A stretch of 64,000 bases of DNA from Thermoprotei archaeon. Lineage in GTDB: Archaea > Thermoproteota > Thermoprotei > Thermoproteales > B15-G16. This document shows, in pieces, positions 1-23,954 of the stretch. The DNA lies in contig QMRC01000001.1 in the NCBI GenBank assembly GCA_003649205.1, positions 1 to 64,000 of the forward strand, read 5' to 3'. The notes beneath the pieces were generated by a model, which saw only the letters and a list, made by a program, of their open reading frames with translations, searched no databases and was not told the DNA's origin. The position numbers and the translations under genes are program-made. Within the stretch, counting starts at the first letter, position 1, and each line of letters begins with the position of its first letter.

Positions 1-734
1 CTCCTTAACTCACGAATTCTCCTTCTAAGAGAATCTAGGTCAAGTTCACCCTCATAGTAACGCAGAACAAGCTCGAGCAATCTACGTTTCATAGGATGCA
101 CGGAGTACGCTACGAGATCTCTAATTATCTCTCTTCTCTCAAATGAAGTACCGGCTAGGTACACACTATAGTAGGTCTTCCACCCTCTCGAGACCTTTGA
201 TCTATCTACCTTAATGTAGTAGTTTATAGAGTGCTCTCGAAGCAGCTTTGTAAAGTCTTTAAGTAATCCCTCATCACAGGTTACGAGAAATCGAATCTTA
301 ACGCTATTACTCACCTCTATTCCTCCTTCTGCCTCAAGGCTGCGAATAAGATATCTCACGATCAGTTTTCCCCTCTTTCTCGTGAGGTCAAATACCCACT
401 CTGGTATTCTCTTAGCCCAAAGACGTCCAACATGTTGTTCACCATATGTCGTTGTCACGAGGAATCCGAAGTCTCGTGGTAATCTAAGTTGGTAGAAGTA
501 AGCTTCCCTCCCCTCCATATGGTATACAAACCTTCTCATGTCAGTATCTGGAAGTTTGGATGCATAATTCGTGAACAGAACCTCTATCCACTGTGCACTA
601 AATACGTTAGTAGTCCCAAATTCTAGGCAAAGCTTGTTACCTATTAACCCTCTATACGTCAAATCCGTCACCAGCAACGCCTGCAGTTCAATCAAGATGT
701 CAGCGTATTTTTGCAACAAGTCAACAAACTTCAA
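1..734 (-). CDS. LAGLIDADG homing-endonuclease-like protein (two-motif type), 3' end runs off the window
   Basis: Not in the ORF track. Manual translation from TTG at 734 is open to position 1: MKFVDLLQKYADILIELQALLVTDLTY...KRIPEWVFDL...RYLIRSLEAEGGI...HPMKRRLLE. It shows a degenerate motif 1 (ALLVTDL), the KRIPEW linker, motif 2 (SLEAEGG) and an HPxK tail typical of LAGLIDADG/intein-type endonucleases. Confidence 0.7.
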   Translation of the reverse strand, partial: MKFVDLLQKYADILIELQALLVTDLTYRGLIGNKLCLEFGTTNVFSAQWIEVLFTNYASKLPDTDMRRFVYHMEGREAYFYQLRLPRDFGFLVTTTYGEQHVGRLWAKRIPEWVFDLTRKRGKLIVRYLIRSLEAEGGIEVSNSVKIRFLVTCDEGLLKDFTKLLREHSINYYIKVDRSKVSRGWKTYYSVYLAGTSFERREIIRDLVAYSVHPMKRRLLELVLRYYEGELDLDSLRRRIRELR

Positions 735-761
735 ACCTCGACCCCCGCAAATTCCCTGTTA

Positions 762-801
762 CTTAAGCTGGGTGTAAAAAATCCGCGGTACCCAACTTAA
801 G
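762..801. repeat. Imperfect inverted repeat between the divergent LAGLIDADG ORF and tRNA-half promoters
   Basis: cttaagctgggt (762-773) and acccaacttaag (790-801) are 11/12 complementary. Confidence 0.6.
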
Positions 802-850
802 ACACTATTTAGGGACCCCCTTTCGATTTGAGAACGATCCCTAGAACGAG

Positions 851-866
851 GAAAAAGGTTAAAAAC
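851..866 (+). promoter_or_regulatory. Putative BRE/TATA promoter for the tRNA-Leu 3' half
   Basis: gaaaaaggTTAAAAAc lies about 27-30 nt upstream of the GC-rich leader at 893. Confidence 0.55.
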
Positions 867-912
867 TGAGAAGAAAAGACGAAGTCCAGAAAGCGGCCCC
901 GCCCCGCCGCAG

Positions 913-965
913 TTAGGACCCGCTGGCGTAGGCCTGCGTGGGTTCAAATCCCACCCCCCGCACCA
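913..965 (+). tRNA. tRNA-Leu(TAG) 3' half only (position 33 to CCA), preceded by a GC-rich leader at 893-912
   Basis: T-TAG-GA-CCCGC-TGGCGTAGGCCT-GCGTGGG-TTCAAAT-CCCAC-CCCCCGC-A-CCA gives anticodon, long variable arm, T arm and acceptor strand of an archaeal tRNA-Leu. No 5' half is found in the 890 nt upstream or immediately downstream. Confidence 0.85.
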
Positions 966-1019
966 ATTTCATACCTCCTCTCTACCCAGTAACGTACTTA
1001 GACTTGTAATTCCTGTCTG

Positions 1020-1610
1020 TTGATGAGTATGTTAAGACATCTGCTCATTCGTGCTCTAGCTAGCTTCATTGGTTTCTGCATGATTCTCTATGCATTTAGT
1101 TCTCAGTACGTTGTTGCTCTGACTCTCGGTTCTCTTCTGTATGCTCGGGGTTTGTTACTGAGGTTACGAGGTGTGCATCTAGGTCGTGTACAGAGGATTG
1201 TGCTTAGGGTACTTTGTTTTGTTGGTGTAGTGACCTCTGTACTAGCTACCTTAGGTTTTCTCACTGAGAATAGTTCTCTTAGTTGTGATGTATCCTGTCT
1301 GTGCTTCTGCGGGTACCCTCAGTATCACTGCTACTCCACGGCTATGGTATTGAGGGTTGTACCCTCCACCACCTTAGCTACTAGGTTACCTAGTATCGAG
1401 TTCCCTAAGGTAGGGATATCCCTCATTACGTTACCTCTAGTGATCTTCTCACTCGGCAGTATCGCTACCATCTTCACTCCCGCTCGCTACCTTCCTCTAG
1501 CGAAGGCCATCCTCCATGGTTTACCTACTCTCTTTGTGTTAGTAGAGACAAATACGTTCCTACCACTGATTTTGTGCTGCTTCGTGCTGTATTCATTACT
1601 ACCTCCTTAA
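1020..1610 (+). CDS. Hypothetical multi-pass membrane protein
   Basis: 196 aa with several hydrophobic segments and a Cys cluster; no recognised family. Confidence 0.5.
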   Translation: MMSMLRHLLIRALASFIGFCMILYAFSSQYVVALTLGSLLYARGLLLRLRGVHLGRVQRIVLRVLCFVGVVTSVLATLGFLTENSSLSCDVSCLCFCGYPQYHCYSTAMVLRVVPSTTLATRLPSIEFPKVGISLITLPLVIFSLGSIATIFTPARYLPLAKAILHGLPTLFVLVETNTFLPLILCCFVLYSLLPP

Positions 1611-1697
1611 TCATTGTCTTCTTACTCATTACGATCCATTAACGGGTAACGAATATCGCCTTGAAGGCACTATTATCGTCTAGATAGCAGTTCCTAG

Positions 1698-2966
1698 CTA
1701 CGAGCCTCCTCTCATAGTACGGACTATGTACAGTGCGGTCACTGCAAAGGGTACTACTGCAGCTAGTGTAGTGAGGATTAGCATGTAGAGTACGTCATCA
1801 ATGTACTTTTCCTTGATGTACTCCTTCCTCTGGATTATTGATGACTTCTGAGTGCTCACTACTTTGTGCTGTTGAGTGATACCTTTGCTCGTTATCGTGG
1901 TTTCTTGCTGAATTTGTTTCTGCGTTTTGGTAGGTGATTTGTTGAGTTTTTCTTGACTTACCTTGGTGTTTCTCTCAACTACTTTACCTAGTGTGGTTGG
2001 TGTAATTGATCTCCAGAGGTACTTTGTGGGTGGTCTAGCTAGTGTGAGTGTTACTGTAGTTTCATTAGTTGGTAATTCCTTGAGAGACATTAGGACTAAA
2101 CTACTGGTTATGTATGGTACTGTCGTTACCCTAGTGGTTACGTTACTTAATCTCCACCTCATTACTGCTACTATCGTAGTGGGTATTCTTGGAATTTCTG
2201 TAGTGAGGTTTATGGGCATCTTCACTACCTGAACTCTGGTGTGTGCTGTGAGTGGTATTGAGGATATTGTGATCCATAGCGTGGGTATGTACTTGATCGT
2301 GACTTCTCTACCACCTACGTACTTGAGGTGAATCATTATTTCGTAATTTGTCCAATTTAGTGATGTGGCTATGTCCTCAACGTCCCTACCGAGTAATTTC
2401 TTAAGTTTCTCTCTGAGTTCCTTGAGCAAGTGTGTCAATGCTGTTGCATTTACCTGTATCTGAATACTCAATCTCTTTCTTGGGTACTCTGTGATTGGTA
2501 TTAGCTTGACGCGTATGGTTAAGTCACTTGTTACGTTAAGCAGCAGTACCTGTAACTCGATTCCTGGGGTGTAGTGAATGGTGAAGTTACCTGCTCTATA
2601 GCTACTTCCTACAGGGATAACACTACCTATTTTCAGTGTCTTTACAGATGTGGTTTGGGTAGGTGTTTTTGCCTCGTATTTCAGTACCGTAAGTTCGTAC
2701 ATTCCGGTGGGTAGTGCTGCTGCTACTACAGGGTATTTCGAAGCTACTTGAAGTACGTATTCTCTCCACGATGGTGGGTACTTGGTATTAGCTAAGTCTC
2801 TAATTAGTACGATGTATGTACCTGTGGTATTTCCTTCCTCAATTACTATGTGAATCGTGTAGTAGGTACTTTGTTCTCTCACTAAGCTGTATGTATGGGG
2901 AGTTGTTGTTAGTAGTAGTGTCATGACTAGGACTAGGACTATGGTTCTGTACCTCAAATCCATCAC
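1698..2966 (-). CDS. Secreted, membrane-anchored Thr-rich surface protein
   Basis: N-terminal signal-like hydrophobic stretch, T/Q-rich linker, C-terminal TM helix followed by basic residues. Confidence 0.65.
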   Translation of the reverse strand: MMDLRYRTIVLVLVMTLLLTTTPHTYSLVREQSTYYTIHIVIEEGNTTGTYIVLIRDLANTKYPPSWREYVLQVASKYPVVAAALPTGMYELTVLKYEAKTPTQTTSVKTLKIGSVIPVGSSYRAGNFTIHYTPGIELQVLLLNVTSDLTIRVKLIPITEYPRKRLSIQIQVNATALTHLLKELREKLKKLLGRDVEDIATSLNWTNYEIMIHLKYVGGREVTIKYIPTLWITISSIPLTAHTRVQVVKMPINLTTEIPRIPTTIVAVMRWRLSNVTTRVTTVPYITSSLVLMSLKELPTNETTVTLTLARPPTKYLWRSITPTTLGKVVERNTKVSQEKLNKSPTKTQKQIQQETTITSKGITQQHKVVSTQKSSIIQRKEYIKEKYIDDVLYMLILTTLAAVVPFAVTALYIVRTMRGGS

Positions 2967-18384: not shown

Positions 18385-19713
18385 CTACTCAATAATTAGC
18401 TTACCATCAACTACCTTTATCTCGTAGGCACCAGTTTCGTGTCTAGATTTCTTTGCCTTCACTACACTAATCATTCTCCTAACTCTCTGGTTACTAAAGT
18501 CAAGCCACATAGCAATGACGTTATCTACTAGCGCTAAGAGAGGTAAGCTAAGTCCGGTCTCGATGTCCCATAGTAACGTAATAAATGAGGTAGCACCTAC
18601 ACTCCTAAGTAGCTTAATGATCTGTACGAGAGTACTATACCCCTCATTATCGTATGTGATGAGTACATGCTGTGCATTATCTAGAGCAATTCTCAATGGT
18701 TTAGTGTGGTCAATAACCTCACTAAGGTACTTCACGAGTTCTCGAGGTGTATACCTGTAGGTATCAACTGCGACAACTCTGAATCTCTCTTCAATGCTAG
18801 GTACATCAATACCATAGGTAGTCCTAACGTAACTCCATAAGTCCTCAGTAGACTCACCAAAGTCTATGTAAAGTACATTCTCACCGGCTCTAGCACCATG
18901 TATAAGAAAGTGCAGAGCAAGTAAGCTCTTCCCCACACCAGAAGGACCGAGAAGTAGCGTTACAGATCCTCTATACACTCCACCCCCAAGTACCTCATCC
19001 AACTTAGGTACACCAGTGGATACCCTCAGGGAAGTACCGCTATACACGCCTCTAAATGCGTGTGTGGTTAATAGCTCAATACCTCTACTTCCGAGAGTGA
19101 ATTCGTAACGTACCTTCTCAACAACCCTACCCCTAAACTTCTGCACCTTAAGGAACCTACGTACCCTATCTTCCCAATACTCCGTACTAAGCTCCAACAC
19201 AACGTCAGCTAGATACTGCTCGAAACCGAGTCCCGGTACTTCGGAGATGAAGATGGTAGTAGTACCAAGAGGTTTAAGTCCATACACAGTAAATACCTGT
19301 AATGCAGCTCTAGCCTCTCGCTCAGGTACACCAGCAGTTAGAGCAGTTACACTATCAATAACCAGCCTAGAAGCACGATACTCACCTAACTTCTCTAAAA
19401 TAGCTGCAAAGACCTCTTCAAGACACTTAACTTCACGAGGTATAGGTACGTGAATGTAGTAGAATAAGTTCTTCCTCTCAAGTTCCTTAAAGTTCATGCC
19501 CATACTAGCCATGTGCTCGAGAAACTCATCCCTCCTCTCATACGTACTCACGTAGAGACCTACCTCTCCCCTCAACGCTCCATGATATATGAACTGTGCT
19601 GCGAGAGTAGTCTTACCTGTACCTGAAGCACCTTTAATGAGAATTAGTGAACCTCTAGGAATAGCAGCAAAAAGATCATCTACAGTACGCACCTCTAAGG
19701 TATGAGAACACAT
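18385..19713 (-). CDS. Two-domain KaiC/RAD55-family ATPase
   Basis: Walker A GASGTGKT and GPSGVGKS, VIDS, STGVPKLDEVLGGG, KFRG. Confidence 0.9.
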   Translation of the reverse strand: MCSHTLEVRTVDDLFAAIPRGSLILIKGASGTGKTTLAAQFIYHGALRGEVGLYVSTYERRDEFLEHMASMGMNFKELERKNLFYYIHVPIPREVKCLEEVFAAILEKLGEYRASRLVIDSVTALTAGVPEREARAALQVFTVYGLKPLGTTTIFISEVPGLGFEQYLADVVLELSTEYWEDRVRRFLKVQKFRGRVVEKVRYEFTLGSRGIELLTTHAFRGVYSGTSLRVSTGVPKLDEVLGGGVYRGSVTLLLGPSGVGKSLLALHFLIHGARAGENVLYIDFGESTEDLWSYVRTTYGIDVPSIEERFRVVAVDTYRYTPRELVKYLSEVIDHTKPLRIALDNAQHVLITYDNEGYSTLVQIIKLLRSVGATSFITLLWDIETGLSLPLLALVDNVIAMWLDFSNQRVRRMISVVKAKKSRHETGAYEIKVVDGKLIIE

Positions 19714-21710: not shown

Positions 21711-21817
21711 TGGCGGCCCCGCCGGGATTTGAACCCGGGACCTGCGGCTTAGGAGGCATTCGGTACCGAGGTATGAGGCCCCGGTATCGCCGCCCTTCCA
21801 GGCTAGGCCACGGGGCC
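21711..21817 (-). tRNA. tRNA-Arg(CCT) with 30-nt non-canonical intron at 29/30 (21758-21787)
   Basis: Removing ATACCGGGGCCTCATACCTCGGTACCGAAT restores GCGGC-CT-CCT-AA-GCCGC. The intron forms a relaxed BHB with an 8-bp h' stem. CCA is encoded. Confidence 0.92.
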
Positions 21818-21925: not shown

Positions 21926-23566
21926 GTGATTTCTCGGAAGCTTCTAATTGCGATTATTCTCGTAATAATTCCTGTTACAGTGATTGGTCTGTACCTATCA
22001 TGTAAGGCTACTAGTGTTAGTGAGGAAATCATACCGAAGGTACCTACTTATGAGGTTACGAACTACATTGCTCTACTCAAGATCGTAGGCTCCATTGCTA
22101 ATGAGACACAGGTATGGGATTTACTGACTAAGATAAGGTTCCTCAAGTCCTGTGAAGAGGTTAAGGGTGTTGTACTGTACATTGACTCTCCTGGTGGTGT
22201 TGCTGCGTATGTTCAGGAGATATACCTAGCAATTAGGGACTTAGATAGCTGTAAACCTGTTGTTGCTTACGTTAGCTCAATGGCTCTCTCAGGTGGGTAC
22301 CACATTGCTGTTGCTGCGAGGAAGATTATTGTTGCTCCTGCGTCAATGATCGGTAATGTAGGTGTTATTGGTTTCGTTCCTCCAAAACCAACACCGAGAG
22401 TAGATGTCCTTGAGACAGGGCCACTGAAGCAAACTGGGTTAACTAGGAGCTCAGTTGTTGAAGCTATAAAGAAGCTACTTGATGAGTTCGTTAATGCCGT
22501 AGTGAGTTCACGAAGAGTAACTATACCGATTACGGAGCTTGCTAGTGGGAGAATATTCATTGGTCTAGATGCTGTTGAGTATGGACTGGCAGACATGGTT
22601 GGTTCGATATTTGATGCTGTGGAGGAAGCAGCGAAATTAGCAGGTGTCACAGAGTACAGAGTTGTATCGTGTGAGGAACTCATGGAGAAAGTGCAGACAG
22701 AAAGGGTAGAGGATCAGTGTGAGGAGATCTCTACTGACATCATTAAGTCAATCAGACAAGCACTAGATAGAGGGCACGTAATGTTCTACATCTATGTACC
22801 ACCGAGTAGAGTACATGAACTAGGTACTGAATTGGTTGCTACAGAAGGTCTAGATGTAGTCTCAACTAAGTACAGTTGGAGAAGCAGTTCAGAAGGGAAG
22901 ACTGTAGTCATAGATCTAGCACATACCACCTCCCTATACCTAGATGAGGTAGAGCCTCTCATAAAGTATCTACTCAGTAACAACGTTACAGTACTGTACC
23001 TACTCAATACCAAGTACATAGATACCATACTCGAGAAAGCACAGGCATACATCGTACTAGCTCCAACAAAGGTCTATAGCTACGATGAGGTTGTTAAGTT
23101 GAGGAGATTTGTTGAGAAAGGAGGAAAGCTACTCCTAGTAGCTGATCCAGAGCGAGGTAACACACTAGCAATAAACACTCTAGCATCAACGTTCAAGATA
23201 CAGTTTAGTACAGGCTACCTATACATACCACCATACAGCATTGAGAATCAGACAAATTACCGAGATGTAATTGGTGAGGTAGCTCAAGAACACGAGATCA
23301 CTAAGGGTATTACCAAACTACTCCTCCACACAGCAACCTACATACAGCTAGGTACAGACTACATACCCCTAATCAAGGTAAGCGCCTACTCAACAACCAA
23401 CTGGAAGAGAGGTGAGTACGTAGTCATGGCAGTATCGAAGAACGGTAGAGTAGTAGCTCTAGCAGACTTATCACCACTAGAAACCGCATACGTAAGTGAA
23501 TTCGATAACGAGAAACTACTACAGAACGTAGTGAAGTTCCTAATGAGTAATGAGGCAAAGACTTAA
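21926..23566 (+). CDS. S49 (SppA-like) peptidase fused to a C-terminal GATase1/DUF4350-like domain
   Basis: TM anchor, IDSPGG, ALSGGY, GPLK, GRIFIG; C-terminal VIDLAH...FVEKGGKLLLVAD...FDNEKLLQN. Confidence 0.8.
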   Translation: MISRKLLIAIILVIIPVTVIGLYLSCKATSVSEEIIPKVPTYEVTNYIALLKIVGSIANETQVWDLLTKIRFLKSCEEVKGVVLYIDSPGGVAAYVQEIYLAIRDLDSCKPVVAYVSSMALSGGYHIAVAARKIIVAPASMIGNVGVIGFVPPKPTPRVDVLETGPLKQTGLTRSSVVEAIKKLLDEFVNAVVSSRRVTIPITELASGRIFIGLDAVEYGLADMVGSIFDAVEEAAKLAGVTEYRVVSCEELMEKVQTERVEDQCEEISTDIIKSIRQALDRGHVMFYIYVPPSRVHELGTELVATEGLDVVSTKYSWRSSSEGKTVVIDLAHTTSLYLDEVEPLIKYLLSNNVTVLYLLNTKYIDTILEKAQAYIVLAPTKVYSYDEVVKLRRFVEKGGKLLLVADPERGNTLAINTLASTFKIQFSTGYLYIPPYSIENQTNYRDVIGEVAQEHEITKGITKLLLHTATYIQLGTDYIPLIKVSAYSTTNWKRGEYVVMAVSKNGRVVALADLSPLETAYVSEFDNEKLLQNVVKFLMSNEAKT

Positions 23567-23860: not shown

Positions 23861-23954
23861 GCCCCGGTAGCTCAGCCTGGTTAGAGCGCCGTCCTGGTAA
23901 TGTCGGCAGCCAGATAGACGGAGGTCCCGGGTTCAAATCCCGGCCGGGGCTCCA
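23861..23954 (+). tRNA. tRNA-Thr(GGT) with 16-nt canonical 37/38 intron (23900-23915)
   Basis: CCGTC-CT-GGT-A|ATGTCGGCAGCCAGAT|A-GACGG; CTGG/CCAG central helix; CCA encoded. Confidence 0.93.

Follow-up and report, generated by a model that had tools for sequence, protein, structure and literature searches.

The window analysed here is the whole stretch of 64,000 nucleotides (nt), the first 64 kb of contig C1 (QMRC01000001.1) in an assembly (GCA_003649205.1) of a Thermoprotei archaeon of the order Thermoproteales, and the element in question is the 3' half of a tRNA-Leu(UAG) gene that starts only 912 nt from the contig start. The genome (G000) is a bin of 31 contigs, 2,066,741 nt in total and with 43% G+C; a genome of the same genus (G001) is referred to as the sister species. 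Read from the sequence, the half is TTAGGA-CCCGC-(15-nt variable arm)-GTGGG-TTCAAAT-CCCAC-CCCCCGC-A-CCA, and it corresponds to positions 33-76 of a class II tRNA-Leu with the anticodon TAG: U33, TAG, G37 and A38 are followed by the anticodon-stem strand CCCGC and the variable arm, after which a perfect T arm, CCCCCGC as the acceptor strand, A73 and an encoded CCA complete the sequence (Table 1). This is the perfect tRNA-Leu portion, from U33 to CCA, that had been described in an earlier account of this DNA made from the letters alone (the original prediction), and the sequence is as stated there. Standard gene finders pass over it: ARAGORN calls three tRNAs in the window and Rfam gives four matches there at the gathering score, none of them at the half, where the Rfam tRNA model yields a partial, sub-threshold match at 922-962 (20.2 bits; cut-off 29).

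Immediately 5' of U33 the sequence reads GCGGCCCCGCCCCG, then CCGC and then AG. The first two of these form an uninterrupted G/C run of 18 nt (893-910), which is the longest in the assembly. Seventeen runs of at least 13 nt were found in all, and the remaining 16 lie in tRNA genes or tRNA fragments (13 runs), in 5S rRNA (one), between CRISPR-like repeats (one) and in sequence that we read as 23S rRNA (one). Given the base composition of the genome and these locations, G/C runs of this length mark structured RNA.

Table 1. Features at the start of the window, in the order in which they are read on the forward strand
Feature	Position	Strand	Basis
ORF-U, two-domain LAGLIDADG homing-endonuclease-like gene	3..734	-	frame open to contig start, predicted fold
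Divergent intergenic spacer, ORF-U to promoter box	735..854	.	read from sequence
BRE/TATA-like box AAGGTTAAAAAC	855..866	+	10.6 bits on 45-gene matrix
Leader, G/C-only, outer helix h' strand with a predicted partner in the trailer of the 5' half	893..906	+	part of the longest G/C run of the assembly
CCGC, candidate 3' strand of a 4-bp central helix, complementary to exon 27-30 (GCGG)	907..910	+	introns of relatives; GCGG of the sister species
Predicted three-base bulge A-G/U, putative 3' splice site 912/913 (slash)	911..913	+	introns of relatives
tRNA-Leu(UAG) 3' exon, positions 33-76 with encoded CCA	913..965	+	sequence; in-silico join called by ARAGORN

Promoter-like boxes were scored with a 12-nt matrix trained on the regions upstream of 45 tRNA genes of G000 (consensus AAATATAAAAAC), with the leave-one-out scores of the same 45 genes and 5000 random windows as controls. 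The box upstream of the half scores above 84% of the leave-one-out values, and 0.18% of the random windows reach its score. It is located at -38 when counted from the start of the leader and not from the exon, and in 30 of the 45 tRNA genes the box lies at -36 to -44; measured in this way, the transcription unit looks to begin just before position 893. The TATA box, and with it a stand-alone 3' half under its own promoter, had been part of the original prediction, and the matrix search points the same way.

The layout of the leader was compared with 20 loci taken from order-level relatives. Eleven of these loci hold uninterrupted Leu(TAG) genes, and in three relatives (loci L002, L005 and L012) Leu(CAG) or Leu(GAG) genes carry short introns between positions 32 and 33. 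At their 3' ends these introns have an inner-helix strand, then CCGA, CCGC and CCGC, respectively, then AT, AT and AA, and then U33; the CCGA and CCGC are complementary, or nearly so, to exon positions 27-30, and on the 5' side the other bulge is formed by G31-Y32 followed by an intronic A. The end of the window leader, ...GCCCCG-CCGC-AG before the T of the exon, has the layout of the 32/33 introns in all three intron-bearing loci that were read. The half bulge-helix-bulge (BHB) geometry, proposed earlier from the letters, is thus right as geometry and would fit a splice site of the kind present in these relatives. We place the interruption of the gene at 32/33, a site at which related genera have short introns in their Leu tRNA genes.

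An intact tRNA-Leu(TAG) gene was not found in the assembly (bin 93.8% complete) with ARAGORN allowing introns, by sequence search or with the Rfam tRNA model, and it is the sole missing Leu isoacceptor: ARAGORN, with introns allowed, identified genes with the anticodons CAG, TAA, CAA and GAG, together with one dubious multi-intron call. CTA is the most used Leu codon (4247 of 14188, or 29.9%, in 275 long frames) and therefore a working tRNA-Leu(UAG) must exist. The splicing enzymes are encoded in the genome: G000 has two genes of the EndA family (PF01974; 106.9 and 75.6 bits), located at C1:212095-212352 and C5:54768-55022, whose open frames measure 193 and 181 aa, and a single RtcB gene (611.8 bits) at C14:36239-37546. 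Genes for Trp(CCA), Tyr(GTA) and Val(CAC) were likewise not found in G000, hence further hidden or disrupted tRNA genes are likely. An ARAGORN "tRNA-Trp" with a 2001-nt intron and a "tRNA-Asp" on C7 lie inside coding sequence and were rejected as false calls. Other tRNA-like loci in G000 are a multi-intron tRNA at C4:26137-26304 that ARAGORN mislabels as Leu(aag), an Asn-like tRNA with a low score (29.2 bits) at C5:35752-35827, and a truncated second tRNA-His at the start of contig C14 (C14:1-52).

That no 5' half lies near the 3' half had been noted before, and it agrees with our search with the 26-nt D-arm word of all Leu genes: at up to four mismatches it gave seven matches, all within intact Leu or Ser genes, and no 5' half in the window. 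A permuted gene, with its 5' half downstream on the same strand, was looked for and not found; from 966 onward the neighbourhood is protein-coding. A candidate is located at the end of another contig of the bin, C10, which terminates with GCGGGGGTGCCCGAGCC, the opening 17 nt of a Leu-type 5' half (C10:60892-60908). The acceptor strand of this half is exactly complementary to the orphan CCCCCGC; the half is separate from the intact Leu(CAA) gene of C10, which is 46 kb away, and has a promoter-like box (7.3 bits) upstream at -49. The orthologous contig of the sister species (C141, locus L035) is 94% identical to the end of C10 over 1510 nt and runs 33 nt past it (...CCAGGTCAAAGGGGGCGGGC), so that its 5' half reaches approximately position 32 (...AAAGGGGGCGGGC). 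This extension provides the anticodon-stem strand GCGGG and the C32 required by the orphan 3' half, and the predicted exon end ...GCGGGC is present there, in a contig of which the last 20 nt are a fold-back (see below). When the 35 nt of the sister 5' half are joined in silico to the 3' exon of the window, the 88-nt product is called tRNA-Leu(tag) by ARAGORN. About 0.8 kb from the 5' half in G000 there is a gene for a CLP1-type polynucleotide kinase P-loop protein (C10:58776-60083; locus L034, 1877-3184, minus strand; PF16575, E 8e-36). Kinases of the Clp1 family act on RNA 5' ends during tRNA splicing in other organisms; the proximity may be due to chance.

Taken together, we consider it probable that the 3' half in the window is functional and belongs to a disrupted tRNA-Leu(UAG) gene, and that its transcript is processed in the manner of a split tRNA. 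Transcription would begin a few bases before 893, directed by the upstream box; the leader would pair with a complementary trailer of the 5' half that starts at the end of C10; CCGC would pair with exon positions 27-30, leaving A-G/U as a three-base bulge; and a two-subunit splicing endonuclease would cut both bulges, after which RtcB could join C32 to U33. For the Leu halves, the trailer, the pairing, the cleavage and the expression are steps that we infer from the arrangement of these motifs.

Several results weigh against this reading. The 5' half in G000 is only 17 nt long and its extension is taken from another species. Moreover, the last 20 nt of the sister contig constitute a fold-back, being the reverse complement of the contig's own bases around the tRNA start, and therefore the sister 5' half is secure only to G27. 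The fold-back joins at CGGGC, i.e., at position 32 of the Leu 5' half; the contig end may be a snap-back chimera or an assembler tip, and its agreement with the 32/33 junction may be a coincidence. The complementary trailer that the original prediction placed behind the 5' half was not found in the assembly, where the 5' half stops at the contig end after 17 nt: the expected trailer CGGGGCGGGGCCGC is absent as the reverse complement of the 20-nt leader (up to four mismatches), as a 14-mer (up to two mismatches) and as any of its 10-mers, and a G:U-tolerant 14-mer search (up to two mismatches) gave 87 matches in the assembly, none behind a Leu-like 5' part. The end of C10 and the 3' half may together make up an uninterrupted gene. 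ORF-U and the tRNA are on opposite strands, no RNA sequencing run is listed as containing the stretch, and the bin, short of complete as given above, is 4.2% contaminated. Finally, contig depth drops upstream of the half, from 19.2 to about 7 in run X1, from 69.3 to 38.5 in X2 and from 13.9 to 5.4 in X5.

This drop has two readings, both of which have to be seen in the light of the measure, which is one figure per contig and poor, and cannot rank the parts of a gene. It hints that the segment with ORF-U and the leader is present in part of the population only, as a homing element would be; or the assembler could have joined two paths through the shared 53-nt tRNA sequence, for which the bin depth is 44,912 and which is common to many organisms. 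Along these lines, the ORF-U/leader segment might stem from a sub-population or a close relative, the dominant genome being intact and the first ~940 nt of C1 having become attached through the shared tRNA, as a minority allele or a chimeric join. In run X1 the depth of 1-946 is approximately 2.5- to 2.8-fold below that of a 15-kb contig from 940 onward, with similar ratios in X2 and X5, and in X2 and X5 the upstream part is also less diverged (3.2% and 1.4-5%) than the downstream part (~11-12%). The assemblies of G000 and of the sister species both break inside the tRNA, and a Caldiarchaeum population is described as heterogeneous at a disrupted tRNA locus (PMC3293823). On the other hand, no contig with an intact junction was identified as belonging to this organism, and the junction of leader and exon occurs in two studies. 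We regard a minority allele or chimera, with a co-existing intact gene, as quite possible though less likely than not; it overlaps, and is compatible, with a disrupted tRNA-Leu(UAG) gene.

The second of the two studies gives some information on variation at the locus. A contig of its run (record 12, covering 382-944) contains the leader/exon junction and differs from the window by 18 substitutions and three indels, all in 382-892 and none in 893-944; 10 of the substitutions and three one-base indels of this strain fall in 735-892. The unchanged leader is weak evidence, since the intergenic rate predicts approximately 1.6 changes over its 20 nt. Contigs of four sequencing runs were aligned to the window, and none extends past window position 1; scans of metagenome contigs gave zero matches both for the junction 26-mer and for the 25-mer from the end of C10.

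The arrangement of the contig ends bears on how far apart the two halves are. On the plus strands, C10 reads outward through the 5' half and C1 inward to the 3' half, and with strands and ends being compatible the two contigs could simply abut. The assemblies of both species break within tRNA-Leu(UAG), and in the sister species no contig matches window 966-2592, the 3' side of its Leu(UAG) gene being unassembled. Gene order in relatives is uninformative on adjacency: the orthologues of the genes around intact Leu(TAG) in four relatives are scattered over the contigs of G000, and orthologues of the genes at the end of C10 and the start of C1 lie far apart in five relatives, with two of the four queries having no matches. 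Based on the compatible ends, one locus with at least ~1 kb of intervening DNA is no less likely than dispersed halves, and we lean towards the former, with the halves ~1 kb apart as in the initiator tRNA described below. The split tRNA of the original prediction is supported with respect to its stand-alone 3' half, promoter and geometry; its complementary trailer was not found in the assembly, and for splicing in trans from dispersed halves a single locus, which the original prediction had named as an alternative, is at least as likely.

The initiator tRNA-Met gene of the same genome (C1:303869-305737) offers a precedent in which both ends are assembled. It is interrupted at 37/38 by 1792 nt that start with A-GGCGGTCGCGGCGGC and end with GCCGCCGCGACCGCC-GTAG-AG, i.e., with a perfect, G/C-rich inverted pair of 15 nt that is spaced by exactly 4 + 3 nt from the stems on each side. 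Behind the 5' trailer there is a T-run, and upstream of the 3' leader a TATA-like box (5.0 bits). In the sister species the initiator tRNA gene, recovered from two contig ends that overlap across it, is uninterrupted and has the same upstream flank, and downstream the similarity between the two genomes resumes approximately 1 kb on; with the gene intact at the same locus, a kb-sized insertion with splice-competent ends therefore entered after the species split. The insertion has three frames, all on the tRNA strand, of which two have weak, sub-threshold Pfam matches (E 0.03-0.08) and the third has none. For this third frame no homologue other than itself was found, the single-sequence model is poor (predicted local distance difference test score, pLDDT, 62.2), and the Atlas gave no named family. 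A LAGLIDADG-like motif, seen by eye in a frame of the insertion, was dropped because BLASTP gave no similarity to ORF-U and there was no family match.

With the two halves on one colinear locus, cis splicing of a single very long intron also comes into question. Here, one precursor including the antisense endonuclease gene would be made from the tRNA promoter, and the box next to the 3' half would serve the ORF-U region or nothing. The strands and ends of C10 and C1 would fit such a locus, as would the halves of the initiator tRNA, which are 1.8 kb apart on one strand, and splicing in cis is known for those archaeal rRNA introns that contain endonuclease genes (PMC4496867). However, the box keeps the promoter distance of G000 tRNA genes from the leader and outscores most of them, and the analogous initiator insertion has a T-run after its 5' trailer and a TATA-like box before its 3' leader. 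In addition, among 90 archaeal genomes a single tRNA intron above 100 nt was noted, and it was reinterpreted as two adjacent transcripts (PMC3218864). A long cis-spliced intron thus seems unlikely to us.

The DNA upstream of the 3' half contains a gene that the original prediction had missed. ORF-U is divergent from the tRNA half, with its start 159 nt from the leader and its 3' end lying beyond the contig start. Pfam gives a weak match to LAGLIDADG_3 (E 0.011; 16.4 bits against a cut-off of 22.5). An AlphaFold model based on a two-sequence alignment has a mean pLDDT of 81.9, and in a Foldseek search against the PDB it gave 20 matches at E ≤ 0.001; among the top matches listed, almost all are LAGLIDADG enzymes, including PI-SceI (2.5e-5), E-DreI, I-OnuI, bI3 maturase, PI-PfuI, I-DmoI and I-SceI. 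In our reading of the same alignment, acidic residues are present at the ends of both motifs (D24 and E136, the latter D in the homologue P0002). P0002, at 45% identity, is the one homologue found in 5.8 billion proteins. No other genome with ORF-U was found among 62 genomes of the order, 120 of the class and 401 of the phylum (the own genome being counted in each), nor was the source contig of P0002 found among them, and searching the alignment against genome contigs gave 108 pattern matches, none of which is a relative. According to the model, ORF-U has a LAGLIDADG homing-endonuclease fold, and its distribution is sporadic. With such a gene upstream, the likely origin of the half changes: the interrupting DNA, which is at least 0.9 kb long, would carry the divergent LAGLIDADG-like gene, ends in the G/C-only leader, and is or was probably mobile.

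Integrative elements in archaeal tRNA genes leave attachment-site duplications, in which an orphan 3' part of a tRNA starts in the anticodon loop. An element that integrated at tRNA-Leu(UAG) could correspondingly have duplicated the 3' part of the gene, with the intact gene at the end of C10, the orphan half as a silent leftover and ORF-U as element DNA. The half does start in the anticodon loop, a frequent feature of attachment cores, and the drop in upstream depth fits an element present in part of the population. Partial tRNA fragments from integrations have been reported for Aeropyrum and Thermosphaera (PMC3218864), and an attachment-like fragment is found in G000 itself, a 69-nt exact inverted repeat on C9 that spans Thr(CGT) from position 32 through its 3' end and a further 24 nt downstream, showing that integration-type fragments do occur in this genome. 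By contrast, the assembly has no second copy of the Leu 3' half, direct or inverted, and no integrase was detected in the assembled flanks, i.e., the 912 nt upstream and the 8 kb downstream, the only Phage_integrase matches being at C9:66260-67180 and C6:47867-48328. The C9 fragment has no G/C leader and no promoter (2.0 bits, a score reached by 35% of random windows), and an attachment remnant would leave jointly unexplained the 18-nt G/C run that reaches to within two bases of U33, the intron geometry of CCGC-AG and the tRNA-type box at -38. This alternative, brought up already in the original prediction, is weakened by the missing second copy and integrase, and we judge it very unlikely. 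The arms of the C9 repeat (approximately 18534-18602 and 22139-22207) are ~3.5 kb apart with no integrase match between them, and the repeat looks like a trace left at a tRNA gene by an integration or an inversion.

Split tRNA genes of Nanoarchaeum equitans were reportedly described by Randau in 2005, and split and tri-split genes of Caldivirga maquilingensis by Fujishima in 2009. The arrangement proposed here resembles those systems in having separate half transcripts, complementary G/C-rich leader and trailer, a relaxed BHB motif and a two-subunit endonuclease, all of them predicted in our case, and in that the break points coincide with intron positions of relatives (PMC4033280). It differs in that the halves in Nanoarchaeum and Caldivirga are scattered across the genome and belong to many tRNAs, with no class II tRNA among them according to a 2015 review (PMC4390854).

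Closer in several respects are the "recently split" tRNAs of the Desulfurococcales (Chan, Cozen and Lowe 2011, PMC3218864), namely tRNA-Lys(CUU) of Staphylothermus and tRNA-Asp(GUC) of Aeropyrum and Thermosphaera, for which those authors propose an origin through mobile elements. There, too, one or two genes per genome are split, the halves are neighbours or separated by a few kb (4.5 kb in S. marinus), a promoter lies at the expected distance before the G/C-rich leader of the 3' half, and orthologues in close relatives are uninterrupted. Those genes have a perfect trans pairing of 13 nt and a BHB motif, features that are here known from the 3' side alone; unlike them, our case, known from sequence, concerns a class II tRNA (Leu), with the break at 32/33 and a LAGLIDADG-like gene in or beside the intervening DNA.

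Archaeal rRNA BHB introns with LAGLIDADG genes of the I-DmoI type (PMC4496867) are similar in being kb-sized, in interrupting a gene for a stable RNA in Thermoproteales-like archaea, in carrying a one- or two-motif LAGLIDADG gene and in their patchy occurrence among close relatives. They are unlike the present locus with regard to the host gene (here a tRNA), the antisense orientation of the endonuclease-like gene and the promoter before the 3' exon, and only the 3' boundary is assembled here. For the tRNA-Thr(GGU) of Caldiarchaeum subterraneum (Sugahara 2012, PMC3293823), offered as a model for how tRNA genes come to be disrupted, a 1.8-kb mobile insertion at the tRNA locus and co-existing forms in one population were described; that element, which has a recombinase gene, left a 5' fragment next to an intact gene with an intron, whereas here the neighbour is endonuclease-like and no intact copy is assembled. 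"Hybrid" Leu(TAA) genes (PMC7080975) were considered and set aside as not comparable, being computational recombinations of other tRNAs.

The original prediction knew of no split tRNA-Leu, in agreement with the 2015 review, according to which no split tRNA was known among class II tRNAs, a fact taken there as support for their recent evolution (PMC4390854). In our literature search, which was thin on subscription journals and without supplements (including the tRNA-fragment and promoter tables of PMC3218864), we found no report of a class II tRNA that is split, and none of an archaeal tRNA intron with an endonuclease gene. Whether split tRNA genes are relics of two-piece genes or recent products of mobile DNA has been debated since 2005 (PMC4033280, PMC4390854, PMC3218864).

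Against this background, we tentatively suggest, as something slightly less than an even chance, that in this uncultured lineage of the Thermoproteales kb-sized mobile BHB introns that carry protein genes (at least one of them LAGLIDADG) and an internal promoter have entered the genes for tRNA-Leu(UAG), at 32/33, and for the initiator tRNA, at 37/38, and in one step split each of them into two transcripts; this would have occurred recently, with the sister species, and perhaps part of the population, still having the intact gene. The locus would make a recent route via mobile elements testable in one organism. It combines a split at the intron position of relatives, a neighbour with a homing-endonuclease fold and a second tRNA in the same genome for which both ends of the insertion are available and the sister gene is intact. 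If true, no split class II tRNA would have preceded it, homing-endonuclease introns would for the first time be linked to the way in which split tRNA genes arise, and the argument drawn from class II tRNAs in the 2015 review (PMC4390854) would be removed. A tRNA for the commonest Leu codon was missed by ARAGORN and Rfam, hence tRNA counts for metagenome-derived genomes may be too low.

With respect to the remaining sequence, the 8 kb downstream of the half encode eIF-2 beta, DUF424, NMD3, eIF-1A, RIO1, a KH protein and ArgRS, together with two frames without matches. With introns allowed, ARAGORN calls two further tRNA genes of the window that have short introns: a tRNA-Arg(CCT) at 21711-21817 (minus strand) with 30 nt near 32/33, and a tRNA-Thr(GGT) at 23861-23954 (plus strand) with 16 nt, for which ARAGORN reports a four-base anticodon when used without the intron option. 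Elsewhere on C1, at 270480-270620, repeats (…GAATCTTGATTAGAAGAATTGAAAG…) on both sides of a G/C-rich spacer look like a CRISPR array.

A few observations concern the assembly itself. Contig C3 (291,428 nt) matches its reverse complement exactly from end to end, with the pivot in a tRNA-His, and for this reason it is an inverted-duplicate assembly artefact, which inflates the genome size and duplicates tRNA calls. Contig C17 has inverted ends of 123 nt, and contig C21 (10,442 nt; 39% G+C) has a direct terminal repeat of 39 nt, as a circular element would have.

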